A DNA stretch of 41,544 nt from Gammaproteobacteria bacterium (GTDB taxonomy: Bacteria; Pseudomonadota; Gammaproteobacteria; GCA-001735895), in assembly GCA_050298595.1 (NCBI GenBank), contig JBNKUM010000023.1, forward strand, positions 1-41,544, in the 5' to 3' direction. Both the position numbers and the translations under genes were made by a program. Positions 1,589-41,544 of the stretch are shown here, piece by piece. Each line of letters opens with the position of its first letter. The first letter of the stretch is position 1. A model generated the notes under the pieces. The model saw only the letters and a program-made list of their open reading frames with translations. It did no database searches and had not been told where the DNA came from.

Positions 1589-5073
<3,485 letters not shown>

Positions 5074-6430: not shown

Positions 6431-7762
6431 TTAATTACTCAGGGTTAGATAAAGATTTTCATAATCTTCGCTAAACCTTTGATCCTGTTGTTTTAATTCT
6501 TCAACCTTACGACAGGCGTGTAAAACTGTCGTGTGGTCCCTGCCCCCGAAGGCGGCACCAATTTCTGGCAAACTATGTCGAGTTAAAAGTTTTGAAAGAG
6601 ACATGGCTATCTGACGTGGTCGAGTGATTGACCGAGTACGTCTATTGGATAACAGGTCGGAAACGTTGATTTTGAAATAATCAGCTACAGTTTTCTGAAT
6701 ATTGATTATGGAAACGTTACGTTCCTGTACTGCCAAAAGGTCTTTTAAGGCTTCTTTGGTGAATTCCTGAGTGATGGCTTGCCCTGTAAAACGAGCATGT
6801 GCAATGACCCGTTTTAATGAACCTTCCAGTTCGCGAATATTCGATTTGAATTTATTGGCGATAAAAAATGCAACCTCTTCCGGCAGCAACACGTTAACCG
6901 ATTCAGCTTTGGTGTGTAATATTGCAACTCGGGTTTCCAGATCAGGTGGTTTTATATCAACAGCAAGTCCCCAACCGAGTCGTGAACGTATTCGGTCGTC
7001 AAGCCCATCAATTTCCTTGGGAAAACGATCACAGGTGATAATCATCTGAGCTTTAGCTTCGTAAAGTGAATTGAAGGTGTGGAAAAACTCTTCCTGTGAG
7101 CGGTTCTTATCGGCAAGAAATTGAATATCATCAATCAGCAAGGCATCAACATTGCGATAGAAGTTCTTGAATTCGTTGATTTTACTATGTTGTAAGGCCT
7201 TGACCATATCCGAAACAAAGCGTTCGCAATTGACATAAACAACATGGCTATCAGGTTTTAAGCGTCTGATTTGATTACCAGCAGCCTGCATTAGGTGAGT
7301 TTTTCCGAGTCCTACCCCACCGTAAATATACAGCGGATTATAATCAGCACCCGGATGATTGCTCACCTGAATTGAAGCTGCTCTGGCAAGTTGATTCGAT
7401 TTACCTTCTACATAGTTTTCAAAGGTTTGTGATTCATTTAAGCCACTAGGATAACTATTAGTAAGTACATCAGGGGTAGTATTCTTTGCTTGAGTTGCTG
7501 CAGAAGTACTAGCACGGGTTTGACTGCCAATCGAAATGATGACATCCATGGATTTACTGTCATCCAGTTGCAGAACAATATTGCGAATTTGATCGAGAAA
7601 ATTCTTCTTTACCCAATCCATCACGAAACGATTGGGAGCCAGTAAGCAGAGTTGATTGTCTTTCAGTTCAGTTTGCAGTGGGAGAATCCAGGTGTTGAAC
7701 TGCTGCTCACTCAGTTCGCCTTCCAGATAGGAAAGACACTGTTCCCATAACTCCAGTTTCAA
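6431..7762 (-). CDS. dnaA: Chromosomal replication initiator DnaA (TTG start)
   Basis: YNPLYIYGGVGLGKTHL, LLIDDIQF, GGRDHTTVLHA. Confidence 0.99.
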   Translation of the reverse strand: MKLELWEQCLSYLEGELSEQQFNTWILPLQTELKDNQLCLLAPNRFVMDWVKKNFLDQIRNIVLQLDDSKSMDVIISIGSQTRASTSAATQAKNTTPDVLTNSYPSGLNESQTFENYVEGKSNQLARAASIQVSNHPGADYNPLYIYGGVGLGKTHLMQAAGNQIRRLKPDSHVVYVNCERFVSDMVKALQHSKINEFKNFYRNVDALLIDDIQFLADKNRSQEEFFHTFNSLYEAKAQMIITCDRFPKEIDGLDDRIRSRLGWGLAVDIKPPDLETRVAILHTKAESVNVLLPEEVAFFIANKFKSNIRELEGSLKRVIAHARFTGQAITQEFTKEALKDLLAVQERNVSIINIQKTVADYFKINVSDLLSNRRTRSITRPRQIAMSLSKLLTRHSLPEIGAAFGGRDHTTVLHACRKVEELKQQDQRFSEDYENLYLTLSN

Positions 7763-7873
7763 GATGTTTTACCTAAGTGTTGTATATCAAAGTCAAACTT
7801 GTGGCCAATTCAGGAATCAAGGCCAATCATTGTCTGACATCAGGGTTATTAAAAGATGCGCAGATTATCATAC

Positions 7874-7882
7874 TTATCCACA
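7874..7882. promoter_or_regulatory. DnaA box upstream of dnaA (probably autoregulatory)
   Basis: TTATCCACA in the dnaA-rpmH intergenic region. Confidence 0.7.
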
Positions 7883-7943
7883 GCAGGTGCAAAACAAAAC
7901 GGGCTTTTACTAAGAAATAATCAAATATAAGTGGGATTAAATG

Positions 7944-7972
7944 TTGACGAACAGGTAACTTATCGGTATCTT
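7944..7972 (+). promoter_or_regulatory. Sigma70-type promoter of rpmH
   Basis: TTGACG-17 bp-TATCTT followed by GC-rich discriminator-like CGCGCC. Confidence 0.6.
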
Positions 7973-8041
7973 TTCGCGCCTGCTTTTAAACAGGCCCTTT
8001 TCGCCAGTAAAAAAGCGACTGATCAGTATTGAGGCAATAAC

Positions 8042-8176
8042 ATGAAACGTACATTTCAACCCAGTAATTTAAAACGCGCCAGGACTCATGGTTTTCGCGC
8101 TCGCATGCAAACTCGTGGTGGCCGTTTAGTCATCAAGGCAAGAAGAGCTAAAGGCAGAGCCCGTCTTACTCCATAG
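8042..8176 (+). CDS. rpmH: 50S ribosomal protein L34 (missing from the ORF track)
   Basis: Manual translation [44 protein letters not shown]; GAGG RBS. Confidence 0.98.
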
Positions 8177-8179
8177 TCG

Positions 8180-8548
8180 ATGATTCAAAAGACCGGGGAA
8201 TCGTTTTCCAGGTCATCCAGGCTGACCAGTGCCGCTGATTTCCAACCGGTATTTAAGGAAAATTTTCGGATTAGCGATGACTGTTTCACTATTCTTGTTT
8301 CCAGAAAAAAAGGAAATTGCGCCAGGCTAGGGTTTGCTATCGCCAAAAAACAGCTTAAACGGGCTGTAGATAGAAATCGCATTAAGCGCTTAATTCGCGA
8401 AAGCTTTCGTAACAACCTTAAAGATTTACCAGATCATGATCTAGTAGTTATGGTACGCTTCAAAATTCTGAGTTTAAGCAATCCGGAAATTTTTTCTCGA
8501 TTAAGAAAACACTGGTCCAGCGTCCAAAGAAAATGCGAAAATTGCTAA
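8180..8548 (+). CDS. rnpA: Ribonuclease P protein component
   Basis: [27 protein letters not shown] motif; synteny. Confidence 0.96.
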
Positions 8549-8754
8549 TCCTGCCTATCCGATTTTATCAGTATGCGATAAGTCCTCTCTTAGGCAGTCG
8601 CTGTAGATATACTCCAACCTGTTCGCAATATGCCATCGAAGCAATAGATAGATTCGGTGCGGTTAAAGGCGGATGGCTGGCTCTAAAACGTTTACTCTCC
8701 TGTCACCCCTGGGGAAGCTGCGGTTACGACCCGGTTCCTCCGGACAATAAATAA
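8533..8754 (+). CDS. yidD: Membrane protein insertion efficiency factor YidD
   Basis: [21 protein letters not shown]. Confidence 0.95.
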
Positions 8755-8778
8755 ACTAACCACGAAATCAAATTCAAG

Positions 8779-30600: not shown

Positions 30601-31134
30601 TGGTTGCAGGAGATCCTGGCTAGCAATCTCGGCGCAGTAAAACTTGGCGACTTAAAGCCCGAACAAAAACTGTGTGAAATGGAATTCTACATGACCAGCC
30701 ACAAGCTGAACCAACAGGGCCTGAATAATCTGCTACACCAGTATGATTATCTATTACGCCATCAGTCATTCTCATTCAGCAGCTTAAATGGTTTCCTGAA
30801 AGGCTTTATCGATCTGATCTTTGAACATCAGGGGCAGTACTTTGTAGCAGATTATAAAAGTAATTATCTGGGCAATGATTTTGCCGACTATGCTGAAGAG
30901 AACTGCAAACAGGCCATGTACCAACATCATTACCATTTGCAGTATCTCATCTACACACTGGCATTACATCGTTACCTCAAACAGCGCCTGCCCGGCTATC
31001 AATATGAGCAACACATCGGTGGTGTTTATTACCTGTTCATCCGTGGTATGTCACCCGAGCATGCTGGCAAAGGCATCTATTTTGATAGACCCGATAGAGC
31101 GGTGATTCAACAACTGGACGAGTTGTTCGACTGA
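27667..31134 (+). CDS. recB: Exodeoxyribonuclease V beta subunit
   Basis: EASAGTGKT, VDEFQDTD, GDPKQAIYSFRGAD, TVHKSKGL, nuclease GFIDL..ADYKS. Confidence 0.97.
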   Translation: MTMQSVNLAEYPLRGVSLIEASAGTGKTYTITHLYVRYLLETDYQVNQLLIVTFTNAATQELRGRIRELVYQVSNYLQQDANKESEFDALFKAWQGNAEALFKLQRALINFDEAAIYSIHGFCQRLLSVFPLETESLLQQKIISNEKELQQQAVRDYWRKNIVGCERSRLEWILQLWKTPDDLLQELYPLFAFEENLQQLVQSDENLDPQINSLWTELSTLWAQSHTEIKAVLLDNPNLNKRSIAPKTVAILFEQLDTLFQDTLPRTLPAKWELITRQKLVNSLNKNKQDDRLQGAFFVAAESFFQLHKNWLRQMKLDLLADATTFVVESIQQKKVQAQNLSFDDLIKYVCAVVNEENTFLNDQIASLFPIAMVDEFQDTDSQQYRIFKTLYQDRTDTALIMIGDPKQAIYSFRGADVFTYQRARKSTSAQFTLDTNYRSSEDYVAMLNQLFSCKENAFIFPELIQFYPAKANQNKPLTLTQDEKNLPALVSWIYPFTDKPANKTQANDYFASLCADEIQSLLGQKTLMLNDKPVVASDLAILVKTGYQASLMKSKLSERGIASAMIQRDSVFASQQAMDISQLLAVLINPSDSALLFGLLASDLFSWNSQDIYRLQQQDHQLVELLEAMKAYQLHWQQHGILSMFFRLIEDQQSLHKNIHYADGERRLTNWIHIMELLQEQASLHASQSQALHWLNQQIEDSANLMENEAHQLRLESDNQLVRIVTVHKSKGLQYPIVFLPFMWNVKEPSKAPSSYYYHDDQGYKKIMLEDDAKLERWQQEKLAEEIRLFYVAITRAQYRCYMAWGNIRGAKDSAIAHVLYNGELKAQDQSEFLKPFTDIYENHGCIELCLDDTEFRIDDGIAASDQAEPVIPAKPFNRSIQQQWRISSYSQIASSSEHDQSVHRPDYDSVSAETDKDEAALEQLNRFTFNKGATAGNFLHNLLEDQVFDQAIDEKLIHNKLQEYGFEETWQPVLRQWLQEILASNLGAVKLGDLKPEQKLCEMEFYMTSHKLNQQGLNNLLHQYDYLLRHQSFSFSSLNGFLKGFIDLIFEHQGQYFVADYKSNYLGNDFADYAEENCKQAMYQHHYHLQYLIYTLALHRYLKQRLPGYQYEQHIGGVYYLFIRGMSPEHAGKGIYFDRPDRAVIQQLDELFD

Positions 31135-32936
31135 TGGATAAACTAAAACTCATCAATCAGGCCGTTAAGCAGAATAGACTGGACTATGCTCAGATCACTC
31201 TGGCGCGTTATTTACTCGAGCAGCATCCAGATGCAACAGAGCTGTGTCTGCATCTTGCCGTGCTGGTGAATCATGAAATCAAACAGGGTAATGTCTGCCT
31301 GAGTATCGACGACATTGCCAAACGCAGCGAAGCGTTGTTGTTGTGCCCTGCCCCGGAAATACAGACCCTGATCGAATCCATTGAAGCTAGTCCGATCATC
31401 GGTAGCAAAAATGAAAACAGGCCGCTGATTTTTGATTTAAACAAGCTCTACCTGAATCGATACTTTCATTACGAAAATCAGCTCGCAGAGCGACTGCTAG
31501 CTTTATCAAAACCTGGCGGCCCATTACCAAAAATAAAAGCGGATCAACTACAGCAATTATTTACTGGTAATGAAAACCCTGATTACCAGAAAATCGCAGC
31601 CCTGGTGAGCAGCCATCACCAGCTCTGCATCATCTCGGGTGGACCGGGTACCGGAAAAACCCGCACGGTCAGCTCTATACTATCGTTGCTCATACAACAG
31701 AATCCGCAGTTAAAGATAAAGCTCGCAGCCCCCACCGGAAAAGCCGCAGCTCGCTTATCACAATCCATACAGGCAAGCCGTGCAGAAATGATACACGACC
31801 TGTTCGTCGAACAGCAGATACCCGACAAGGCCGTCACCCTGCATCGTCTACTGGGTATCCACCGTTATACGCATAGACCGCGTTATAACGCTGACTATCC
31901 ATTAAGTTGTGATGTACTGGTGCTGGATGAAGCCTCCATGATCGATCAGCAAATGATGGCAGTGGTGTGCGAAGCTTTGCCAGCACATGCACGATTAATC
32001 CTGCTGGGAGACAAAGACCAGCTGTCATCGGTAGAGGCCGGCAGTGTTTTCGCCGATCTATGCGGAGAGCTGAAAGGCACCCAGTTCAGCAAGGCTCAAT
32101 GCAAATGGATAAGGCAAACCCTGGATTACGAGATCCCCGAATACACAGGTGATTATCGCCTGGCTGATCAGGTCGTTGTGTTACAGAAAAGCTATAGATT
32201 CGATAGCGATTCGGGTATTGGCCAGTTAGCTCGCCTGATTAATGCTGGGGATAGTGAAGCAAGTCTGCAATTTTTGATGGAATCTCAGCCAGCTCAGAAA
32301 GTGCAATGGCAACAGCTATCCGATCAACAACTTAATGAACAGTTGATACAACAGGCGTTACAGCACTATCAGCAAATTATTGATGCAAATAATATCGAGG
32401 ATGCTTTCAAATGCTTTTATCGCTTTCAGATTCTGGCGGCGGTATGGGATGGCGTAAGTGGTGTCGATCAAATCAATAGTGTGATTGAACAGGCTTTGAA
32501 GCGGCAAAATAAAATATCAGATGATCGTCCCTATTTTGCCGGCATGCCGCTGATGATGAGTAGTAATATGTATCAGTATGGTATCCATAATGGGGATATC
32601 GGTGTTGTCTGGCCGGATGATGATGGACAGCTCAAGGTCTGGTTTGAGGCTGATGATAAGGGTTATCGGGCGCTTTCATTATCGCAGTTGCCCGAATCGA
32701 AAACGGCTTATGCGATGACGGTGCATAAGTCTCAGGGGTCTGAGTTTGAACGGGTGTTGATGGTATTGCCGGGTTATGAATCTAGCGTTTGTACTCGGGA
32801 GTTGTTGTATACGGGTATTACTCGGGCGAGGGATAGTGTTGAGATTTGGGGATTGGGTGGTGTTATTGGGAGTGCTGTTGAGCGGAAGACGGTGCGGGTT
32901 TCTGGGTTGTTGGAGCGGTTGAGTGAAAACAGTTAA
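31134..32936 (+). CDS. recD: Exodeoxyribonuclease V alpha subunit
   Basis: GGPGTGKT, APTGKAAARL, LDEASM, GDKDQL, AMTVHKSQGSEF, LLYTGITRA. Confidence 0.97.
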   Translation: MDKLKLINQAVKQNRLDYAQITLARYLLEQHPDATELCLHLAVLVNHEIKQGNVCLSIDDIAKRSEALLLCPAPEIQTLIESIEASPIIGSKNENRPLIFDLNKLYLNRYFHYENQLAERLLALSKPGGPLPKIKADQLQQLFTGNENPDYQKIAALVSSHHQLCIISGGPGTGKTRTVSSILSLLIQQNPQLKIKLAAPTGKAAARLSQSIQASRAEMIHDLFVEQQIPDKAVTLHRLLGIHRYTHRPRYNADYPLSCDVLVLDEASMIDQQMMAVVCEALPAHARLILLGDKDQLSSVEAGSVFADLCGELKGTQFSKAQCKWIRQTLDYEIPEYTGDYRLADQVVVLQKSYRFDSDSGIGQLARLINAGDSEASLQFLMESQPAQKVQWQQLSDQQLNEQLIQQALQHYQQIIDANNIEDAFKCFYRFQILAAVWDGVSGVDQINSVIEQALKRQNKISDDRPYFAGMPLMMSSNMYQYGIHNGDIGVVWPDDDGQLKVWFEADDKGYRALSLSQLPESKTAYAMTVHKSQGSEFERVLMVLPGYESSVCTRELLYTGITRARDSVEIWGLGGVIGSAVERKTVRVSGLLERLSENS

Positions 32937-33261
32937 TGATTGAAAAGCTTGGTCTGGTAAAAGCGGTCAGGCCCGTTGATCCCACTGAAAATTGAAAGCA
33001 ACTCAATATCCAGAAACCTTTCGCCTATTTCGGTAAAACCGTTTTGATGGATTCTGCTTAACTAATATGCTAAGTTTTTGAAATTGTAAGGAAATAATAA
33101 TGAAAATTGGTCGTATACATGTTTAAAAATTTGTTTTTAATTCCCCTAGATAGGCCGTAAGCTGCGGCCCAATTTGAATGTTATGGGTACACGAATCGAA
33201 ACACTTAGTTATTTATTGTCACATATTTGTTAGAATAGAGACAAAATTATAAGGAAATTAA

Positions 33262-33888
33262 GTGCCAATTTATCCCATACCAACTCCTATTTATCATTTT
33301 ACACATATCGATAATTTGGCTGCATTACTTGGAGCTGGCATGCTTCTTTGCAAGAATGATATGACAGCACAAAATGCACATTATCGAAGTTCCGCCTTCG
33401 ATAGCGTTCAAGCTCAGAGGGGATGTTTCCAGGTCCCGGTATCAAGAGGTGGTACTATCCATGATTATGTTCCATTTTATTTCAATAGCTTGTCACCAAT
33501 GTTATATACAATAAATTGTGGAAATGTTGAAAACATAAAAATGAAAGATTTAATTTTTTTTAAATCTTCTGCACAAAGAGTTTCTTCTTCAGGGTGCGAC
33601 TTTGCATTTACTGATGGTCATGGAATTATGGATTTATCAGATTATTATGATGATTTAGCGGACTTAGACAAGGTGCCTTGGAATGTTATAAATGCTCGTT
33701 ATTGGAACAAGTTTCCAGATGGGAGTAGATTAAGACAGTCAGAATTTTTGGTATATAAAAGCTTTAATTGGAGTTTAGTTGAAGTAATCGGCGTCTATAA
33801 TCAAGAGATGAGAGAAAAGATAGAGGAATTAATTTCGAATCTACAACATACCCCAATTGTTCAAGTTAGAAGAAATTGGTATTTCTAG
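33262..33888 (+). CDS. darT: DarT ssDNA ADP-ribosyltransferase toxin (DUF4433)
   Basis: YHFTHIDNL, HDYVPFYF..SPMLY, FTDGH, RQSEFLV with catalytic Glu; upstream of a macrodomain gene. Confidence 0.93.
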   Translation: MPIYPIPTPIYHFTHIDNLAALLGAGMLLCKNDMTAQNAHYRSSAFDSVQAQRGCFQVPVSRGGTIHDYVPFYFNSLSPMLYTINCGNVENIKMKDLIFFKSSAQRVSSSGCDFAFTDGHGIMDLSDYYDDLADLDKVPWNVINARYWNKFPDGSRLRQSEFLVYKSFNWSLVEVIGVYNQEMREKIEELISNLQHTPIVQVRRNWYF

Positions 33889-33898
33889 TGGTGATTTT

Positions 33899-34927
33899 AT
33901 GATTAATTTCAAAACAGGTAATATCCTATCAGATAATTCGCAAGCGATTGTCAATACGGTCAATTGCGTGGGTGTTATGGGTAAAGGTTTAGCTTTACAA
34001 TTCAAAAAGGCTTTTCCAGGTAATTTCAAAGAATATAAGTCTGCATGTGATAAAAAATTAGTTACACCGGGTAAAATGTTTATTACCAGATACGATGATA
34101 TTCTTGAAAGCAAATTTATAATTAATTTCCCAACGAAACAACATTGGAAAGGAGCATCAAAAATAGAATATGTAGAAGATGGCCTTGAAGATTTAATTAA
34201 AAATATTAAAAAATTAAAAGTTAAAAGTGTAGCCATTCCACCACTAGGAGCTGGGTTAGGGGGGTTAGATTGGGAAATAGTAAAAAATAAAATTGTCGAA
34301 GCGTTTTCTTCTATCGAAGATGTAGATGTTGTTATCTATGAACCCAACGGAAGTCCAAAAGCTACGAACATGATCAATAAAACTAAGAAACCAAATATGA
34401 CGAGAGGTCGAGCTTTATTAATTAAGTTATTGGAATTTTACTTTCAGAAAGGCTATGAGTGTTCGAAGATAGAAGCTCAGAAACTAGCATATTTTCTACA
34501 AGAATCTGGTATTAACCTAAGGCTCCAATACGTAGCTCATCATTTTGGCCCATATGCAGACAATTTAAATCATGTATTAGAAAGAATTGATGGACACTTC
34601 ATTGAAGGTTTTGGAGACAGAGTCAATACTTCACAGATCAAACTAATACCTTCTTCTATAGACGAAGCTAATAAATTTTTAGAAAATGATATAGAAGCCG
34701 AAACATGTCTTAGAAAGGTTGAAGAACTAATTGATGGTTATGAAACGCCTTTAAGCATGGAGGTTCTTTCAACAGTCCATTGGGTTGTAAAACATGAGAA
34801 ATATGATGCTAGAAACTTTGAAGGAATTAAATCTTTTATCCAGCAATGGAATGAGCGTAAAGCTAGCTGGAAAGACTCTTATTTGCAAAAAGCTATAGTT
34901 AGGCTTGAGTCCTGTCAATGGGTTTAG
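33899..34927 (+). CDS. darG: DarG macrodomain DNA ADP-ribosyl glycohydrolase antitoxin (DarTG2 type; start moved to MINFK)
   Basis: VNTVNCVGVMGKGLALQFK, FPTKQHWK, IPPLGAGLGGLDW, C-terminal QKLAYFLQ..GPYA. Confidence 0.93.
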   Translation: MINFKTGNILSDNSQAIVNTVNCVGVMGKGLALQFKKAFPGNFKEYKSACDKKLVTPGKMFITRYDDILESKFIINFPTKQHWKGASKIEYVEDGLEDLIKNIKKLKVKSVAIPPLGAGLGGLDWEIVKNKIVEAFSSIEDVDVVIYEPNGSPKATNMINKTKKPNMTRGRALLIKLLEFYFQKGYECSKIEAQKLAYFLQESGINLRLQYVAHHFGPYADNLNHVLERIDGHFIEGFGDRVNTSQIKLIPSSIDEANKFLENDIEAETCLRKVEELIDGYETPLSMEVLSTVHWVVKHEKYDARNFEGIKSFIQQWNERKASWKDSYLQKAIVRLESCQWV

Positions 34928-34928
34928 T

Positions 34929-35012
34929 CCCTAGCAAGTCTGATCCACAAAGATAAATTTCACCTTCGTTCCTCACTCCAGTTAAATTTCTCTGTGATTT
35001 GGGCCGTTGGCT
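34929..35012 (+). other. attC-like integron cassette site (degenerate R'') directly after darG
   Basis: CCCTAGC-5 bp-TGATCCAC...GTGATTT-5 bp-GTTGGCT with imperfect stem CACAAAGATAAATTT / AAATTTCTCTGTG and two unpaired bases. Confidence 0.6.
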
Positions 35013-35021
35013 CTTGAAAAA

Positions 35022-35045
35022 TTGGGGGCAGATGCCTACCCCCAA
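35022..35045. repeat. Short palindrome related to the GGGGTCAGA motif
   Basis: TTGGGGGCAGATGCCTACCCCCAA. Confidence 0.55.
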
Positions 35046-35316
35046 CGGGGTTTAAGCTCGTACTAAAAAGCAAAAGCAATCAGATTTTTTTGGGTAAACT
35101 TGTTTACCTGATCGCCAATGCTTAAACGACTTGCAAAACACCCAACGATACCCAGCTGGCGCTGGAAAAGGCTGTTTAGACATTGTCTAAGTCTCCTTCG
35201 GAGTTCCTTGACACCAGCCATATTAACCGCCAAGATTACGTTGCTAAACATATTTTCCTGCGGTATTTTGGTCTGGCCCCCCTTTGGGCAACTCCAGGCA
35301 CCCACGGAAGATTTCG

Positions 35317-35350
35317 AAAAGAGCTCATGTTTGCAGACATGAGCTCTTTT
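35317..35350. terminator. Bidirectional terminator at the 3' end of the minus-strand orphan gene
   Basis: AAAAGAGCTCATGT-TTGCAG-ACATGAGCTCTTTT. Confidence 0.8.
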
Positions 35351-35353
35351 TAT

Positions 35354-36103
35354 TTAGCCCTCATCACCCCATACGGGCGTTTCTGCGGAATTAAATTTTT
35401 TTTCTACCTTCTTTAACATTGCCTTAATAATTAGAAGATCTTCTACCTCATTTACTACGATCACTGAATCCATACCAGGGCCTTTAATTCTTACCGAAAA
35501 TTTATCGTCTCCCTCTATAACATCCTGATCTATATTAGTATTTGGACTGTTTTCATTATTGTCTAGAGTATCTCTATCACCAGAATCCACAGTTTCAACT
35601 TCAGTATCTTCAGAAGCTTTGACACCACCAGCAGCCCCAGCTTTCAAATGGTTATCAGGCCCTATTAGGCCACATTGCTTGGCTCCATCAAGAAAGTACT
35701 TGGATACCCGAGAGCTAATTTGGTCTGGCACATTGAATTCACGAATTAGAAGTTTCTCAAAGTGATCAATTGGTAACTCTCGACCTTCAAATCGATCAAA
35801 AATATTTTTAAATAGAGGTGGTGTTAAAAACGCTAAGGTTAAGGCTACATCGGCCTCTTCCTTGGAGTAAGCCAGTTTATGGTCACGAAATAAACCTGAA
35901 TTTTTAAGCTGCCCTTTTTGGGTAGTAATAAGTCCATACCTTGCAGCAGAGCTAATCAGGGCTTGAAAAGCACCGCTCACCTTCTTATTCAGCTTATCAG
36001 CGGCCATTTCAGTGCTGCACTCTCCACCCAAGTCATCTATCACTTGGGCTAGTTCAATACAATTTTTCAAAGAAGCCCGTGGGTAATCAATTTGTTTTGC
36101 CAT
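35354..36103 (-). CDS. Hypothetical protein, probable tandem winged-helix N-terminus and acidic linker
   Basis: Long ORF with its own terminator; YPRASL start, S..ARYGLI and AKQCGLI helix-wing-like motifs; start MAKQ chosen over 36118. Confidence 0.65.
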   Translation of the reverse strand: MAKQIDYPRASLKNCIELAQVIDDLGGECSTEMAADKLNKKVSGAFQALISSAARYGLITTQKGQLKNSGLFRDHKLAYSKEEADVALTLAFLTPPLFKNIFDRFEGRELPIDHFEKLLIREFNVPDQISSRVSKYFLDGAKQCGLIGPDNHLKAGAAGGVKASEDTEVETVDSGDRDTLDNNENSPNTNIDQDVIEGDDKFSVRIKGPGMDSVIVVNEVEDLLIIKAMLKKVEKKFNSAETPVWGDEG

Positions 36104-36327
36104 AGCTAAACCTATCATTCAATAATCAATATTGAGCACTATACGCCAATAAGCTCATTTTGTAAACTAAAATAAGTTTATTAAATAGCTTATTTAAGTT
36201 TATTCTTAAACCGAGTCTTAAACCGGGTCAGACCCAGGTAACTCGGAATCAATAGGGTAATCAAAGAATCAATAAGTAAAATGGACGTAAAATGGAGACA
36301 CCCAACGAGGGGTAATTGAAGAGGGGA

Positions 36328-36457
36328 CGAGCTGAATATCGGGTCGGACCTGCGTAACATCTTGATTTTATGGACTTATTTCCTATATAACCCTATGATT
36401 TAAGCCTTAAAGGGCCCATTTAACAGGGAAAAAACAACCTTTAAGGAAAATGCAAGT
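36328..36457 (+). repeat. 130-bp direct repeat, copy 1
   Basis: Matches 41088-41217 with 4 mismatches; contains GGGTCGGACC and an IHF consensus at 36355-36367. Confidence 0.95.
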
Positions 36458-36699
36458 GAGGTAATTGAGGGTAATTGAAGACACCCATAATAATTGAAGA
36501 CACCCATCGATTGAAAATGAAATTAATCTTATGCAATTCAGCTACGGCTTCAGTTAAAAGTAAGTGGTATTAAGACGAAATTGCGTATTTGTTTATCTTT
36601 ATTGGGTATTTTGTCCCTGGATGGTTTATCAAGACAAAATGATCCTGCGACCTGAATCGAAGGTTGGTGTTTGAAAGAACTTTTAGAGAGATATTGGGG

Positions 36700-37707
36700 T
36701 TATGTGTCAGGAAAAACTTCAGCGCAGCGCTTCACACCATGCACCCAGTTTTTCCCCATTTGCTCACAGGCTTGCTTAATTTTATATGCGCTTCCCACCA
36801 GTGATTTAAATGGGCTTTCGAAATCCTTTGTCAGGTAAACCCAGTGTCTGGGGTCAATATTCAGTCGGGTCAGTATGTCTGGTAGATGGTCAGGAATGTA
36901 TCCCTTTTTATCATCTCTAAGAATACGTCCAGTCCAGCCCACCAGTTCAAGGTAATCAGTGTAGCGAAAGGGTAGACCTTTTGGCATTTTGTTACGCGGG
37001 TAGCCTGCGAATGGTAGTAACTCACTGGGTTGGGCGCGTATTGCTTCTGGGTTAACAGGACTAGTCTCAGATTGGTGTTTTATGCGTTTCTTAACCGAGG
37101 TGTGATCCGATGTTTCAGGTGTTTGTGCCATGCGAGAACGAATGGGATTGAGATCGACATAGTCCATACAAGCTGCCAATGCTTTTTCATCCAGCAGGGC
37201 CTGTGATTTGAAGCGTCCTTCCCAGAACCGACCTGTTGCCTTATCTTCTTGATTAGCTTGACGTGCAATGGGCTCATTCAGGCATCGCATGAACCAACTG
37301 ATATCCATTAAGCGTTGTCGCCATTCTTCCACTTTTAGCGCTAACTGATCTTCTTCTGCAGGTGGTAAGAGCTCTCCCGTCAGAAAACGATTGGACAGGT
37401 TAAACCCTGAAAACAATTGATGCCATTGGTTACAGACCTCACGTATAGACCAGGCTTCGGCCTTTTGCTGATCGATATGCAAAACGACATGATAGTGATT
37501 GCTCAGGATCGCATAAGCGGCGATATCAATTGCAAAGATTTTAGATAATGAAAGTAATCGATCTTCGATCCATTGTCTTCTGTGTTCATAATCCTGTCCG
37601 GATTGGGAGTCTTTGCCACATAAAAAAGCACGGCGTACACAGCGGGAAATACAATGGTAGTAAGGTGTGGCTTCGATAGAAACCTGAGTCTTCCTTGCTT
37701 TTGGCAT
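36700..37707 (-). CDS. RAYT/TnpA-REP-like Y1 HUH tyrosine transposase, long form
   Basis: YYHCISRCVRRAFLCG, HUH motif SNHYH, GRFWEGRF, catalytic Tyr in DYVDLNP; AGGAG RBS; intact frame. Confidence 0.9.
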   Translation of the reverse strand: MPKARKTQVSIEATPYYHCISRCVRRAFLCGKDSQSGQDYEHRRQWIEDRLLSLSKIFAIDIAAYAILSNHYHVVLHIDQQKAEAWSIREVCNQWHQLFSGFNLSNRFLTGELLPPAEEDQLALKVEEWRQRLMDISWFMRCLNEPIARQANQEDKATGRFWEGRFKSQALLDEKALAACMDYVDLNPIRSRMAQTPETSDHTSVKKRIKHQSETSPVNPEAIRAQPSELLPFAGYPRNKMPKGLPFRYTDYLELVGWTGRILRDDKKGYIPDHLPDILTRLNIDPRHWVYLTKDFESPFKSLVGSAYKIKQACEQMGKNWVHGVKRCAEVFPDT

Positions 37708-37739
37708 AATGCACTCCTTGCAGTTTGATGAGGTATTAA

Positions 37740-37768
37740 AAACTACGACTTTTTCTTTTGTTAGTCAA
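37740..37768 (-). promoter_or_regulatory. Sigma70-type promoter of the HUH transposase
   Basis: Minus strand TTGACT-17 bp-TAGTTT, just inside the ATGGGTGTCC end. Confidence 0.55.
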
Positions 37769-37829
37769 TATTTAATATATGGGTGTCCATGTTTGGCTAT
37801 GGTTTCATGGGGCGACATTTCCTCCATTT

Positions 37830-38018
37830 CGTAGTAGCACCGCAAAGGTTAAAACATATGCTCACGCCTACTATATTTTAATGGTAGCGTATGCACTTTT
37901 GCTTGAAGTATTCTTGTACAGAGAGTTTGGTGTAATTGACCAATCCAGGGTTTGTATCGCTGTGGAGAAGAACAAAGCTAATTATACTAAGATATTCGGC
38001 AATATATTAAAAAAATAA
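37830..38018 (+). pseudogene. Probable 3' gene fragment
   Basis: Open frame ..AHAYYILMVAYALLLEVFLYREFGV..* whose only upstream ATG is inside the terminal motif; left boundary approximate. Confidence 0.35.
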
Positions 38019-38117
38019 ACCTTAGTAAGAATAGTGGGGTCAGGTCTAGCTTTTAGCTCTAATCGGTGGGGACTGGACATTGGGTCAAACCCACCTTTAA
38101 CCTGATGGGTAAATAAT

Positions 38118-38735
38118 TTGAAAAGTAACTTTTTTATTGTACTTATATTGCTGACACCTTTTGTCATTGCTAAATCTGATGGCTTAGATAAAGGAATTGA
38201 TGAGATAAAAAATTACAGAATGTTTATAGATATGCCTCATTCTCTCAACATGAGGTCAGAAGAAGAAAATAAGAATTTTGTTTTAACGTACTATGAGAAA
38301 AAACTAGAAGGATCTGATGAGTTTTCTTCACATTATAAAAAAGAAACAGTGTTATATGATTGGGTGGTTATTTATGAAAATGATAGAGAATTTAAACATA
38401 TAATAAAAATTGTTGCCGATAATTTGATTTCTTTTCCAAAAATAATAAGGGATACAAATATAGCCCCAAAAGATGCGATTACTGTAAGTACTTTTGGCTC
38501 TGATGGAAAAGGATTTAATATGATGGTAAGTGATTTATGTGATTTTAAATTTAAAATATCCGTCCTGGATGATCTAAATGAGATAACAGTTTCGACTATG
38601 CATAATTATCCTAATTTAGATTTTTGCAACGCATATCCGGTGATCCTTGGTGCTAGTGGTATATTGGTGGAGCCTGATGGTAAGGGAGGGGTGATTCTTA
38701 AAAGGAGTGCAGCAATTAAAGACACCCATCAATGA
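38118..38735 (+). CDS. Hypothetical exported protein whose 3' end runs into a GACACCCAT motif
   Basis: TTG start, signal-peptide-like N-terminus; last codons KDTHQ* are read from AAAGACACCCATCAATGA. Confidence 0.6.
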   Translation: MKSNFFIVLILLTPFVIAKSDGLDKGIDEIKNYRMFIDMPHSLNMRSEEENKNFVLTYYEKKLEGSDEFSSHYKKETVLYDWVVIYENDREFKHIIKIVADNLISFPKIIRDTNIAPKDAITVSTFGSDGKGFNMMVSDLCDFKFKISVLDDLNEITVSTMHNYPNLDFCNAYPVILGASGILVEPDGKGGVILKRSAAIKDTHQ

Positions 38736-38862
38736 ATAACTAGGGTCAGATACAAATTAAATTATTTGACGTTTTTTTCGAAGCTTACAGGGTGTAAAGC
38801 TAATTGGAAATGCAGTGTTGTAGATCAAATAAAATATAACGTATATCTGCCCTCAGTTATTC
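38735..38862 (+). repeat. ~127-bp MITE/REPIN-like element, copy 1
   Basis: Ends AATAACTAGGGTCAGATAC / ATATCTGCCCTCAGTTATT; collinear with 39831-39957. Confidence 0.9.
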
Positions 38863-39080
38863 TGCCAGTTATTCGGGAGATTAGTGAGTTGAACCGGGTT
38901 TTTAATCAATTTACCAAATTATGGCAAAATGCGGTAATATCACGGCAGTTAAAACAAGGATAAAAAGGATGGAAAATTTACAAACTTTTGAATTAGAAAA
39001 GGAAAGATCGAATTTTCATCTTAAAAAACAGCTCAACTCTAAAAGTCATATATGGAAAATTTTATAATGATTAGGAAATT

Positions 39081-39734
39081 ATGTTCAAGCATCAGTTAAA
39101 GAGGGTTTCAAAAAATATATACCCATTTATCATCCTTGGGTTTATATCTGGAATGTCTATTGCCAATTCCAACTATTTCGAAAGTATAGAATGGTTAAAT
39201 TGGTATCTTCAATATGCAAATATTGAAATCAATTATAAAGATAGTGGGCAATCGGTCTTTTTTGAGCACTTTGCACCAAATACTCTTCTATATATATTGA
39301 TTGCAATATTTTTCTTTTCCGCTTTACATCGTACGTTTAGAGGGGCTATAGAAAAACCACCCCAAAATGATGAAGGTGCAATTTATGCGTTGGAAAATTT
39401 TGGTTCTCTACTTGCTATATCTTGGCTTGGGCTAATGATAGGTATCATGGGGCCTGCTTGGTATTATGAGGGTTTTCCAAGCTTTATTAAGTTTTTAGTG
39501 CTAGCAATATATCCAATAATGTTTTTGGTCGAGGTGAGATTATGCACAGCATTCTTGTATTGGGAGGGCTTGCAGAAGATACCATCTTACATTGATGATA
39601 GAGCTGGTTGGAGGTGGGGCACTAGAGCCGAAGGTGCATTTGTATTGTTACTTTGTTTAATAATGCTTACATTCCATCAGCAGTATGATTCGTTTATGAA
39701 ACTCCTCGGAACACTAGTGGTATCATTGTTATAA
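39081..39734 (+). CDS. Hypothetical multi-pass membrane protein
   Basis: About 5 hydrophobic segments, AGGA RBS, no recognised family motif. Confidence 0.7.
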   Translation: MFKHQLKRVSKNIYPFIILGFISGMSIANSNYFESIEWLNWYLQYANIEINYKDSGQSVFFEHFAPNTLLYILIAIFFFSALHRTFRGAIEKPPQNDEGAIYALENFGSLLAISWLGLMIGIMGPAWYYEGFPSFIKFLVLAIYPIMFLVEVRLCTAFLYWEGLQKIPSYIDDRAGWRWGTRAEGAFVLLLCLIMLTFHQQYDSFMKLLGTLVVSLL

Positions 39735-39748
39735 CAACGAAGTGGAAG

Positions 39749-39803
39749 TTAAAGGGATCGGAGGTACATAAGAATTATCCCCTTATACCTCCGGCCCCTT
39801 TAA
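39749..39803. repeat. REP-like inverted repeat
   Basis: TTAAAGGGATCGGAGGTA / TACCTCCGGCCCCTTTAA, 16 of 18 complementary. Confidence 0.8.
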
Positions 39804-39830
39804 TCGTTGGAGTAATTGAATAATAATTGA

Positions 39831-39957
39831 AATAACTGGGGTCAGATACAAATTAAATTATTTGTCAGTTTTTTCGAAGCTTACTGGGTATAAAACTAAC
39901 TGGAAATGTAGTGTTATAGATCAAATAAAATATAACGTGTATCTGACCCTAGTTATT
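39831..39957 (+). repeat. ~127-bp MITE/REPIN-like element, copy 2
   Basis: Ends AATAACTGGGGTCAGATACA / TGTATCTGACCCTAGTTATT. Confidence 0.9.
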
Positions 39958-40034
39958 CTTGACCCTAGTTATTCTAGTTATTTTGACCCTAGTTATTTGT
40001 GACCCTAGTTATTTGCTAGTTATTACTAGTTATT
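39944..40034 (+). repeat. Stuttered tandem array of the element's right end
   Basis: Seven CTAGTTATT copies, four extended to TGACCCTAGTTATT, irregular spacers. Confidence 0.95.
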
Positions 40035-40069
40035 ATACGCCCTTTGTATAAATGCTTAGATGTTATATT

Positions 40070-40423
40070 TCACTCGGAAATGAGTTCTTCTATTTGTTCA
40101 AGTTTCATTTGTAAGTGTTTCTTCGTTTGTAGCAGAGCATTTATTTTGTTGTCTACTTTATTAAGTTGTATTTTAAATATTTCAACTTTATCTTGATTGC
40201 TAATCTCTTTATTTTCCCATGGGATAATGAGATTCGCTATTTCTCGTAAGGGCATACCTAGTAATTTTGCGTGCTTAATAAGCTCAACTCTTGCGATAGA
40301 GCTTAATGGATAATCAAAATAACCATTGATTAATCTATTGGGTTGTAATAATCCCAATTTTTCGTAATGACGAATAGTATCTCTTGTTAATCCCGTTTTT
40401 TTCATTAGTTCATGCTTTAACAT
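40070..40423 (-). CDS. MerR-family transcriptional regulator
   Basis: TRDTIRHYEKLGLL..NGY HTH, IKHAKLLGMPLREI, C-terminal coiled coil; no Cys. Confidence 0.9.
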   Translation of the reverse strand: MLKHELMKKTGLTRDTIRHYEKLGLLQPNRLINGYFDYPLSSIARVELIKHAKLLGMPLREIANLIIPWENKEISNQDKVEIFKIQLNKVDNKINALLQTKKHLQMKLEQIEELISE

Positions 40424-40442
40424 ATCACATCTTATTTATGTG

Positions 40443-40474
40443 TTGACCGTGGGCTATACACCATAGTTTAAAGT
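40443..40474 (+). promoter_or_regulatory. MerR-type promoter/operator
   Basis: TTGACC-20 bp-TAAAGT with imperfect dyad ACCGTGGGCTA/TACACCATAGT. Confidence 0.7.
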
Positions 40475-40600
40475 GACCATTCTAATCAACTAGAGAGGTA
40501 GTAAAATGTTAAAAATATACAAACAACTTTTAATGAAAATTATGTGTAAAACTTTAATTAAGTAAAACAAGCGATCAATTAATCTCAGAAGGAATATATT

Positions 40601-41044
40601 TTGCAGTCAGAAAACCCACTTATAGGTACATGGGGATTAATCTCATTTGAGCTTCGCCAAGAAGATGGAACTATCAAGTATCCATGGGGAAGTGATATCA
40701 AAGGCCAAATAATGTATGGTTCAGATGGATACATGGCAGGTTCATTTATGAAAGGAGACAGACCTACTTTTGAAGGTGATGATGTGATGGCAGGATCATC
40801 TATAGAGTTTGAAGAGGCAATGAAGTCTTATATTGGTTATGCTGGGCCATATAACTTGCAGGGAAGGTATGTGTTCCATCAAGCTACTATTAGTTTTTTC
40901 CCAAATTGGACAGATACTACAATCAGAAGGGCTTTTGATGTTGAGGGCAATAGACTTACTCTCACGACACCACCTTTGATCTATGGTGGAATATCAGTTA
41001 TTGCCGCTTTGGTTTGGCAGAAATTGCCTTCATTAAAAATATAA
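40601..41044 (+). CDS. Lipocalin-like domain protein
   Basis: LIGTW.L.S, G.IMY..DGYM, Y.GPY, SFFPNW, GNRLTL motifs; AAGGA RBS with TTG start. Confidence 0.75.
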   Translation: MQSENPLIGTWGLISFELRQEDGTIKYPWGSDIKGQIMYGSDGYMAGSFMKGDRPTFEGDDVMAGSSIEFEEAMKSYIGYAGPYNLQGRYVFHQATISFFPNWTDTTIRRAFDVEGNRLTLTTPPLIYGGISVIAALVWQKLPSLKI

Positions 41045-41087
41045 TAATTGGGGTCATAATAATTTGGGTCAGATACAAATTAAATGT

Positions 41088-41217
41088 CGAGCTGAATATC
41101 GGGTCGGACCTGCGTAACATCTTGATTTTATGGACTTATTGCCTATATAACCCTATGATTTAAACCTTAAAGGGTCCATTTAACAGGGAAAAAACAAACT
41201 TTAAGGAAAATGCAAGT
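41088..41217 (+). repeat. 130-bp direct repeat, copy 2, preceded by a truncated left end of the 127-bp element (41066-41085)
   Basis: Matches 36328-36457; GGGTCAGATACAAATTAAAT just upstream. Confidence 0.95.
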
Positions 41218-41254
41218 ATGAATTAAAGCCCCATTAATTGAAAATGGGGTGTTT

Positions 41255-41305
41255 GGAGACAGATCACAGAATATTTTAATATTAGAGTTAATTGTGATCT
41301 GACCC
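41255..41305. repeat. Short inverted-repeat element with a CTGACCC end
   Basis: GGAGACAGATCACA ... TGTGATCTGACCC. Confidence 0.7.
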
Positions 41306-41333
41306 TAATGGTACTTACTTAAGGCTGTTACGC

Positions 41334-41544
41334 TGTTAATTGCGAGGACGCCTATATGGATGTAGTGTTAGGGCGAAGCACGACTCCATGGAGGGAGGAG
41401 GTAGAGCGAAGCAGGATGCTAGAGCCGAGGAGCCAGAGCCGAGCTTTCGACGTGGCAGGAGTGCTACAGGATGTAGCGTATACGGAAGCAAGGGATCTAA
41501 TCCCTTCGTCAGTGGGGTTTCTGCAAAGTTAGAGATCGCCGCGC
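41334..41544. repeat. Nested REP-like elements
   Basis: Two related 46-48 bp units, one inside the other, within a TTGCGAGGA..CGACGTGGCA..ATCT / AGATCGCCGCG palindrome. Confidence 0.65.

Follow-up and report, generated by a model that had tools for sequence, protein, structure and literature searches.

Results

The region downstream of recD

We analysed contig C23 of a gammaproteobacterial draft genome (G000; 5.49 Mb in 119 contigs), a 41,544-nt stretch that constitutes the entire contig and that we call the window. Here, C numbers are contigs of G000; G001, G004, G010, G011 and G012 are relatives, and L numbers are compared loci. The first 33 kb of the window carry core genes located near the replication origin (gyrB, recF, dnaN, dnaA, yidC, mnmE, polA and recC-recB-recD), and the 8.6 kb past recD contain unrelated genes with short GGGTCAG- and GACACCC-type motifs lying between them. 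The original prediction, made from the sequence alone, took this region for a transposase-run analogue of an integron, in which an HUH enzyme of the Y1 class captures and shuffles the genes between the motifs. Our results suggested a different origin: the region is probably an eroded integron cassette array without an integrase of its own, secondarily colonised by Y1 (HUH) transposons bounded by terminal inverted repeats, the so-called TIRtrons.

The end of recD marks the transition. GC content is approximately 0.45–0.48 before this point and 0.32–0.44 beyond it, and the homology of recD to four relatives ends at position 32925, within the final codons of the gene. Six of the eight cargo open reading frames (ORFs) share one strand. 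In agreement with the original prediction, no integrase or DDE transposase domain was found among the 18 upstream ORFs of at least 140 aa or among the 11 further ORFs scanned (10 of the region plus recD). Contig C23 did not contain intI remnants either, with no match to TIGR02249 and a best tblastn E value of 0.072. The assembly of positions 36335–40166 is backed by two independently assembled contigs, L027 and L207, which are 99.97% identical to it. Note that L027, L207 and L205 are contigs filed under a differently labelled metagenome bin; judging from the identity of L027 and L207, this would reflect either mis-binning or very recent sharing.

The genes and integron-type features of the region are:

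31134–32936, + strand: recD, the conserved left anchor (Pfam RecD_N, AAA_19 and AAA_30; BLAST to L009–L012)
32988–33183, + strand: type-1 attI-like leader (five other copies in the genome; similarity ends at AGAATGTTA)
33262–34927, + strand: darT-darG pair (ORFs 33262–33888 and 33857–34927; Pfam DarT 4.3e-53, Macro 1.5e-26)
35354–36118, − strand: 254-aa orphan ORF (no Pfam or NCBIfam match)
38118–38735, + strand: 205-aa orphan with an N-terminal hydrophobic stretch (no family match)
38875–39061, + strand: type-2 attI-like leader, truncated, without the terminal GTTRRRY core (BLAST and copy comparison)
39081–39734, + strand: 217-aa orphan rich in hydrophobic stretches (no family match)
40062–40068, + strand: GTTATAT, an integron R' core, 5' boundary of the merR-lipocalin cassette (comparison with L205)
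40070–41044, both strands: merR (40070–40423, −) and a lipocalin-like gene (40601–41044, +), one integron cassette (Pfam MerR_1 5.8e-12, Lipocalin_5 1.5e-31)
41317–41544, no strand assigned: repeat of the contig end, unclassified and abundant (78 hits by BLAST in G000)

Integron signatures in the cargo

The boundaries of the merR-lipocalin pair could be resolved by comparison with two other loci. Starting at GTTATAT (40062) and continuing rightward through merR, L205 and the window share 99.5% identity; to the left of this point L205 carries a canonical 72-nt attC that ends in the same GTTATAT, so that the two sequences part at a G|TTRRRY cassette boundary. At the other side, L208 carries the lipocalin gene at approximately 99% identity, and three canonical attC sites come after it, one of 107 nt and two homologous to it, the last of them cut by the contig end; the same cassette is thus followed by an attC elsewhere. 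The identity to L208 stops at 41042, inside the stop codon, exactly where a stuttered transposon end (of the A family, described below) starts in the window. As judged from these alignments, the merR-lipocalin pair is a true integron cassette, the 3' region and attC of which have been replaced here by transposon debris. The lipocalin gene was not found in the genome contigs searched, and the metagenome scan gave one locus, L208.

The leaders provided the second set of signatures. Two of the five other type-1 copies (C53 and C78) adjoin a divergent intI 5' fragment, as detected by tblastn, and no attC array was seen downstream of any of the five. The type-2 leader has four other copies in the genome, one of which (C100) adjoins an intI 5' fragment. 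A complete intI was found beside none of the leader copies. When eight type-2 copies were aligned, five reached the GTT core and then diverged (four with GTTRRRY and one with GTTATGC); a sixth copy, on C17, continues to ATTAGGG without a GTT core, and the copies of the window and of G011 stop earlier. In G010, G011 and G012 the type-2 leader lies directly after recD and is followed by different genes in each, the order in G012 being recD, type-2 leader, a gene and a canonical 72-nt attC. A short ORF within this leader (38963–39061, 32 aa) is kept in G010, G011 and G012; the G010 version belongs to a longer ORF of 58 aa.

Integron integrase genes are present elsewhere in the genome. One intI frame, free of stops and over the family cut-off, is located at C89:72502–73446, with four canonical attC sites beside it. 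Another stop-free frame is at C75:87838–88698; its 5' end may be damaged, because the longest ATG-started ORF is only 183 aa. C99 holds a broken intI copy, and N-terminal intI fragments occur on other contigs. Besides the C89 and C75 frames, we observed at least five degenerate integron platforms consisting of intI pseudogenes or N-terminal fragments (C53, C78, C100, C101 and C99).

To locate attC sites we used a home-made detector. Its loose form recovered 4/4 true C89 sites and also gave 15 hits in the 33 kb upstream; its strict form recovered 1/4. In the intergenic DNA of the region the loose form reported only the A1 and A2 elements described below, with two more hits inside the darT/darG and lipocalin coding sequences. 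The strict form, which finds one in four C89 sites, reported 198 sites genome-wide and a density of 0.076 per kb in loci carrying A ends, compared to 0.036 per kb genome-wide.

The motifs cluster and coincide with the ends of Y1 elements

GGGTCAG occurs 11 times in the window, compared to 2.86 expected, and none of 100 shuffles attained this number; eight of the copies are located past 36 kb. Exact copies lie at 36225, 38037, 38743, 39839 and 41066 (+ strand) and at 39943 and 41299 (− strand). Another, absent from the list of the original prediction, lies inside the Y1 gene (36867), and three are in core genes (22252, 24520 and 24610). The remaining positions of interest hold one-mismatch or partial forms (32964, 35024, 36341, 38082, 41050, 41101, 38846 and 39960–40006); about half of the GGGTCAG-like positions originally listed are inexact variants. 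GACACCC occurs five times, compared to 2.18 expected, and 6 of 100 shuffles attained five. Its positions proved exact at all five places originally listed (36297, 36480, 36499, 38721 and, in reverse, 37781), all of them between 36297 and 38727 (2.5 kb). Since the genome-wide densities are 141 per Mb for GGGTCAG and 71 per Mb for GACACCC, the eight and five copies in 8.6 kb represent an approximately 6.6-fold and 8-fold excess, respectively. With longer end patterns, the 30–40 kb bin of C23 had 10 matches, the highest of 599 ten-kb bins (mean 0.26, runner-up 5), in a count that used four end patterns, two of them defined from this window. The clustering is real, and the motifs do lie between unrelated modules, as had been claimed.

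The tie to HUH/Y1 enzymes was also borne out, since the motifs are the ends of HUH/Y1 transposase elements. They are, however, not one type of site. Repeat analysis separates them into the cores of terminal inverted repeats from at least five TIRtron families of the Y1 class. The idea that all of them are sites of the 335-aa protein encoded in the region did not hold: only GACACCCA is its own (29 of 61 loci, see below), and the forms of GGGTCAG are spread over at least four further Y1 families. These four further families are represented by at least eight derivatives without a gene (miniatures, solo ends and remnants), whose ends have a common GGGT-rich core. The Y1 elements of the region are:

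36202–36242, + strand: stuttered solo end resembling the C74-type TIRtron terminal repeat (CCGGGTCAGACCCAGGTAAC; direct repeat D9; compared by eye with the C74 repeat CCGGGTTGGACCTAAGTAAC)
36328–36457, + strand: D1 copy 1, solo 5' end of a C74-type TIRtron (terminal repeat GGGTCGGACC plus leader; 97% identical to 41088–41217)
36463–36498, + strand: stutter, tandem TAATTGA(A) units plus a partial extra GACACCC end (direct repeats D5 and D12)
36499–37787, − strand: 1.29-kb Y1 element with intact gene, ends GACACCCAT...ATGGGTGTC (inverted repeat I17; ends common to other copies)
36700–37707, − strand: 335-aa TnpA-Y1 gene, subclass 2.3 (motifs NHYH, WE and YVDLNP; full-length homologues)
38036–38088, + strand: GGGGTCAGGTC...GGGTCAAACCC segment, family unassigned (94% identical to C78:58438–58490)
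38734–38862, + strand: A1, 129-nt miniature of the GGGGTCAGATAC TIRtron, right end degenerate (repeats D2 and I1)
39747–39803, + strand: 57-nt miniature of the C111-type TIRtron (terminal repeat AAAGGGRTCGGAGGTA; C111 full element)
39830–39958, + strand: A2, 129-nt miniature of the GGGGTCAGATAC TIRtron (repeats D2 and I2)
39959–40043, + strand: stutter array, repeated (TGACCC)TAGTTATT partial right ends (direct repeats D3, D6 and D8)
41043–41087, + strand: solo left end of the A family (41057–41087) with stutter (direct repeat D4; alignment to L208)
41088–41217, + strand: D1 copy 2, solo 5' end of a C74-type TIRtron (repeat analysis, BLAST and comparison with C74)
41225–41256, + strand: remnant of a miniature subclass-2.3 element (AAAGCCCCATTAATTGAAAATGGGGTGTTTGG; compared by eye with a 62-nt miniature of G001 and the ends of other copies)
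41255–41305, + strand: fifth-family miniature (terminal repeat GGRGWCAGATCACA; about nine other copies in the genome; hairpin z −4.2)

The subclass-2.3 element

The 335-aa translation reads SNHYHVV, FWEGRF and DYVDLNPIR, the HuH, W and Y motifs of TnpA-Y1 subclass 2.3. In Table 1 of Quentin et al. 2018 (PMC6006769) this subclass is defined by NHYH, WE, YVDLNP and a length of about 325 aa, and the protein agrees with that description in motifs and length. It has at least 8000 full-length homologues of 333–335 aa (all 8000 scored candidates matched), some of them named RayT by their source. Its score remained below the gathering cut-off of Pfam Y1_Tnp (PF01797; 15 bits vs 23, E 0.028) and below that of NCBIfam REP_Tyr_transpos (41.6 bits vs 80, E 1.1e-10), and a PDB sequence search with the protein gave no match.

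The gene sits within terminal inverted repeats (36499–37787), the arrangement of a TIRtron, and the Y1 genes of the L117, C74, C76 and C111 elements are likewise enclosed. Of 78 homologous loci from other genera, 61 were examined; the other 17 were dropped because the gene was at the locus end or partial. In 29 of these 61 the longest inverted repeat around the gene holds a GACACCCA(T/C) core, and the units so bounded measure 1.23–1.34 kb in most loci and approximately 1.63 kb in two. Subclass 2.3 has been reported without identifiable repetitive extragenic palindrome (REP)-like flanks (Quentin et al. 2018, PMC6006769), and, judged by section 15 and Table 1 of that paper, the conserved GACACCCA inverted pair appears to be unreported.

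In G000, other copies cover the unit 4- to 18-fold by BLAST, most of them decayed fragments, which corresponds to the several diverged copies per genome expected of the subclass. Both exact ends are kept by two full units only, those of C23 and C15. Open frames without stops are found on C23 and C35, the latter copy being diverged; the C15 copy has a stop codon, and those of C15, C30 and C85 are broken or short. With its multiple, decaying copies, the gene resembles an insertion sequence in its behaviour, and not a domesticated gene. The highly abundant flanking palindromes of a REPtron were not found, as GACACCCAT has only 46 occurrences in the genome (5.5 Mb). Among 18 GACACCC...GGGTGTC inverted pairs spaced 25–1600 nt apart, pairs belonging to Y1 elements occur only on C15, C23 and C99 (a 592-nt remnant), 11 others are in unrelated DNA, and none of the short pairs represents a miniature element. 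The genome has a total of at least 27 Y1-type matches.

Several observations concern this family elsewhere. In G001 a 62-nt miniature consisting of only the two ends, GACACCCAT and ATGGGTGTC, is found at 4165–4235 of L013 (G001:C104); it sits after D1 repeats, at the place where G000 has the full 1.29-kb unit, and the flanks past the right end differ. In Microbulbifer thermotolerans, subclass-2.3 units (L041, L057, L059, L062 and L082), four of them on one contig within approximately 17 kb, have the common extended ends GAATCATGGACACCCA ... TGGGTGTCCATTTTTGTT. In Shewanella atlantica (L093, 315–2457) approximately 230 nt separate the start of a subclass-2.3 Y1 gene from that of a divergent, full-length integron integrase; the Y1 gene starts at the expected place of attI.

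The A family and other TIRtrons

The 129-nt A elements are derived from a different transposon. In L116, L117 and L126 an inverted A tip lies 791–801 nt beyond the left end, and the 235-aa protein encoded in L117 matches Pfam Y1_Tnp (2.4e-14), with motifs NHVH and YIELNP. Because the same ends bracket a Y1 gene in these full-length elements, the A elements are miniatures of a 0.8-kb element of the TIRYT type. The 18-nt A-family tip was found in 95 stretches of other genomes; an ORF with both HUH and Y motifs follows 5 of 89 distinct A ends, and one with the HUH motif follows 6 of them. The cognate gene of the A (GGGTCAGATAC) family was not found in the G000 assembly, the best match having 53.5% identity. 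As single-stranded DNA, A1 folds with −19.6 kcal/mol (z −4.9), and the terminal stem of A2 is a continuous 20 bp (z −6.3). The GGGGTCAG of A2 and of the 38036 segment fits GGGGWSAS, and A1 (AGGGTCAG), A3 (TGGGTCAG) and the subclass-2.3 ends (GGGTGTCC) do not; as described in PMC3733652, only some TIRYT terminal repeats carry this sequence.

A2 is 98% identical to a copy in G001 and 96% identical to one in G004, with different DNA on both sides. Since the A element alone is common to these genomes, the miniature itself is a mobile or exchangeable unit. Downstream of recD in G000, G001, G004 and G012, all A-family copies (6/6) have one orientation. GC skew is positive across the array, in which the A copies are likewise co-oriented, and this is compatible with a strand-biased insertion. 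The position of dnaA and of the gap before yidC (6431–8778) puts the replication origin approximately 25 kb from the array.

As for the other families, D1 copy 1 is 88.7% identical to C74:13723–13837, directly 5' of a 263-aa Y1 gene flanked by an inverted end; the complete third-family element on C74 thus encodes a 263-aa Y1 protein and has the terminal repeat CGGGTYGGACCT. The Y1 gene of C111 is flanked by a 20-nt inverted repeat, AGTTAAAGGGGTCGGAGGTA, and its miniature at 39747–39803 forms a hairpin of −14.7 kcal/mol (z −4.3). The sole other copy of the 38036 segment sits just past a truncated intI (C78:58265–58389). Yet another TIRtron, at C76:1000–1800, has a 24-nt terminal repeat (AAAGGGGACGGAGGGATTAAATTT) and a partial tip duplicate after its right end.

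Stuttered ends and nesting

Outside the element ends we found partial copies of the tip plus a few flanking bases, repeated in tandem, a pattern that we call stutter. In the window it occurs at 36202–36228, 36463–36498, 38845–38874 (where it follows A1 at 38863–38874), 39959–40043 and 41043–41065. In other genomes a partial tip copy lies within 31 nt of 23 of the 89 A left ends, compared to 0.025 expected per end. For the subclass-2.3 units, stutter was seen by eye, unscored by program, in about 19 of the 29 core-bearing loci.

The elements are also nested. A elements adjoin subclass-2.3 fragments in G000 (38714–38733), G004, G001 and G012, at differing positions of the Y1 gene, and the truncated genes adjoining them are cut at 37249 in G001 and at 37040 in G012. 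The last codons of the 205-aa orphan enter this 20-nt fragment of the window (38714–38733; D5, 90%). On C101, an intI fragment stops (model position 135) where a subclass-2.3 unit starts.

Breakpoints between strains

The original prediction had expected turnover of the cargo downstream of recD, and this is what we observed. G004, G010, G011 and G012 have different content from base 32926 onward, and G001 is collinear with the window over 32457–36475, with 98.9% identity. The mapped breakpoints are:

32925: no element end near
36475 and 37798: tips of the subclass-2.3 element, compared to G001
38859–38875: A1 right tip and start of the type-2 leader
39057–39061: inside the type-2 leader, no element end
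39829 and 39957: A2 tips, in G001
39831: A2 left tip, in G012:C190
40062: integron core
41042: stuttered A end

Other features of the region

When 79 genomes of the order were searched for the module of darTG and the 254-aa orphan, only G000 and G001 carried it. A 34-nt palindrome (35317–35350, inverted repeat I16) precedes this orphan on the + strand. The final 141 nt of the contig match the end of C99 at 100% identity, suggestive of an overlap in the assembly graph. The contig end was considered as a group II intron; a scan of the whole window with Rfam at gathering thresholds gave 0 matches, and this candidate was therefore unsupported.

Discussion

Origin of the array

Our results suggest that the cargo was most likely brought in by an integron and not by a transposase. 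In the sequence of events that we propose, cassettes would have entered by IntI-mediated attI x attC recombination. Y1 elements would then have inserted between the genes and into each other, with their ends partly duplicated in tandem as stutter. Finally, adjacent deletions and homologous exchange between dispersed copies may have removed attC sites and gene ends. On this view, the junctions of modules bear the motifs because the DNA between cassettes is where the elements insert and what they erode; the motifs would not delimit capturable units. In this form the array is probably no longer efficiently shuffled by an integrase. The attI-type leaders, the G|TTATAT boundary shared with a canonical attC, the lipocalin gene followed by attC elsewhere and the two intI frames without stops argue against an integron analogue run by an HUH enzyme as the main explanation; since an integrase explanation exists, nothing requires capture by a Y1 enzyme.

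Several results weigh against the eroded integron array. Our detector, which is weak, reported no canonical attC inside the window, and the integron status of darTG and of the three orphans is therefore unproven. No intI lies beside either leader, here or in the four relatives. Nor was a general link of the Y1 elements to integrons apparent: in their flanks, which are short, an IntI match was found for none of 80 A-end loci and for one of 78 subclass-2.3 loci. Of the ten breakpoints mapped, seven are within approximately 25 nt of the end of a Y1 element, one is at an integron core and two are at neither. G000 and G012:C190 have a block of A2, its stutter and merR in common at 99.5% identity, although the two recD genes are only approximately 90% identical; on the left the block is bounded exactly by the A2 left end, and Y1-mediated transfer of flanking DNA would also explain it. 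Finally, in L129 and L105 co-oriented A copies alternate with unrelated genes.

The first alternative to be considered is that turnover proceeds mainly by RecA-type homologous recombination between dispersed repeats after DNA uptake, with both the integrase and the Y1 enzymes now inactive at the locus. Repeats of 130–220 nt and 80–98% identity are common within and between the genomes, the breakpoints coincide with repeat edges, and the subclass-2.3 copies are mostly decayed (their 4- to 18-fold coverage, the two units with exact ends and the stop codon on C15). However, the G|TTATAT boundary and the divergence right after GTTRRRY are signatures of a site-specific crossover, not of homology, and the stutters and nested insertions need transposase action at some time. 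We consider this explanation unlikely. Note that the insertion of elements accompanied by adjacent deletion, or homologous exchange involving dispersed copies, would be expected to place breakpoints at element ends equally well.

A more limited role for the transposases, less likely still, is that a Y1 enzyme supplied in trans would occasionally take paired TIRtron ends, those of miniatures or solo ends, for alternative termini and mobilise the DNA between or beside them. Such end-bypass capture occurs in Helitrons and ISCR elements. If this were true here, integron arrays infested with TIRtrons would be two-enzyme shuffling systems, stutter would be the trace left when ends are cleaved and rejoined repeatedly, and the A2-stutter-merR block found in two species would be the product of one event.

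In its full form, the capture model holds that Y1/HUH enzymes nick and join single-stranded DNA at the end motifs and excise, capture and reshuffle the genes between them, which would make the region a transposase-run analogue of an integron. We regard this as improbable. In support of the model are the seven breakpoints at element ends, the A2-stutter-merR block with its edge at the A2 end, the uniform orientation of the six A copies downstream of recD, the frequency of stutter at A left ends, which points to repeated end processing, and loci L129/L130 and L105/L106, where the genes alternating with co-oriented A copies include toxin-antitoxin-like pairs (named by eye). Against it, cargo genes lie between the elements and never inside a terminal-repeat pair; the ends belong to at least five families with different cognate enzymes, that of the A family being encoded by a gene not found in the assembly; the A element occurs alone in differing contexts; where cassette boundaries could be resolved, they are crossovers of the integron type and have canonical attC partners; and homologous recombination also gives breakpoints at dispersed repeats. 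Thus, of the capture, shuffling and truncation originally proposed, the hotspot, the breakpoints at ends and the truncations associated with the elements are upheld, but the position of the cargo outside the repeat pairs and the integron signatures speak against the rest.

Finally, it is very improbable that the A elements are themselves working attC sites in a functional integron: their geometry (AATAAC-5 nt-TCAGATAC ... GTATCTGA-5 nt-GTTATTC) agrees with an R''-L''...L'-R' arrangement, each copy comes after a co-oriented ORF with a spacing (1096 nt) like that of cassettes and the G012 element occupies the expected place of the attC of the second cassette, but the same ends bracket a Y1 gene in full-length elements and the continuous 20-bp terminal stem has no unpaired central spacer or bulges, unlike canonical sites folded alongside, so that the proposal was rejected; in addition, the R' (GTTATTC) does not fit GTTRRRY, and the breakpoints lie outside GTTATT and not at G|TT.

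Comparison with known systems

What looked like a new HUH-run cassette system appears as two known systems stacked. This calls for caution in the annotation of integrons, since TIRtron miniatures mimic attC in size, hairpin shape, AAC/GTT tips and position after genes. It also suggests that erosion of integron arrays by Y1 elements, through removal of attC, is a possible route to cassette fixation. For the enzymes, the GACACCCA inverted pair, conserved across many marine genera, is a concrete substrate for biochemistry, and the stutter at the ends of at least three families hints at the cut sites of these uncharacterised proteins.

The region resembles integron arrays in its location by a core gene, the single strand of most cargo ORFs, the lack of an adjacent intI, its attI-like leaders, its G|TTRRRY boundary, the attC sites on sister contigs and the presence of intI elsewhere. 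A cluster of attC sites without an integrase is called a CALIN; the region differs from this attC-based definition in that no canonical attC was found in the window. Insertion sequences of the IS1111-attC type and group IIC-attC introns also settle in integron arrays and target attC specifically. The likeness is that of mobile elements settled in such arrays; here, in contrast, a crude test did not reveal a clear enrichment of Y1 ends near attC-like sites, as 17 of 127 terminal-repeat hits lie within 1.5 kb of a site of the strict detector (which finds 1/4 C89 sites), compared to 10% of the genome covered. With the REP/REPIN-RAYT systems (REPtrons) the region shares the Y1 superfamily and hairpin-forming non-autonomous derivatives; it differs from them in the lack of a high-copy REP population (GACACCCAT, 46 per 5.5 Mb).

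Among the closest relatives are the TIRYT elements or TIRtrons, described as Y1 HUH genes flanked by terminal inverted repeats and not by REP hairpins (Di Nocera et al. 2013, PMC3733652). In that description many of the repeats carry GGGGWSAS, and the families are moderately abundant and occur as singles, dimers and clusters. The A family, with the GGGGTCAG of A2 and a 235-aa Y1 protein, fits the description directly; what differs here is that at least five families are nested in one 8.6-kb locus, that the ends are stuttered and that GGGGWSAS is not matched by the GACACCCA ends of subclass 2.3. The subclass-2.3 protein is in turn like those described in PMC6006769 in its motifs, its length of approximately 325 aa with insertions, its long C-terminal tail, its several diverged copies and its occurrence in marine Gammaproteobacteria, and differs from that account in the conserved GACACCCA(T/C) inverted pair that bounds a unit of approximately 1.3 kb in 29 of 61 loci. 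Among the papers listed that combine integrons, attC, HUH and Y1 transposases, none describes a Y1-driven cassette array, as judged from titles and abstracts. Taken one by one, the parts of the region belong to kinds already known, namely TIRtron/TIRYT elements, subclass 2.3 of TnpA-Y1 and cassettes of chromosomal integrons; what is unusual is their pile-up.

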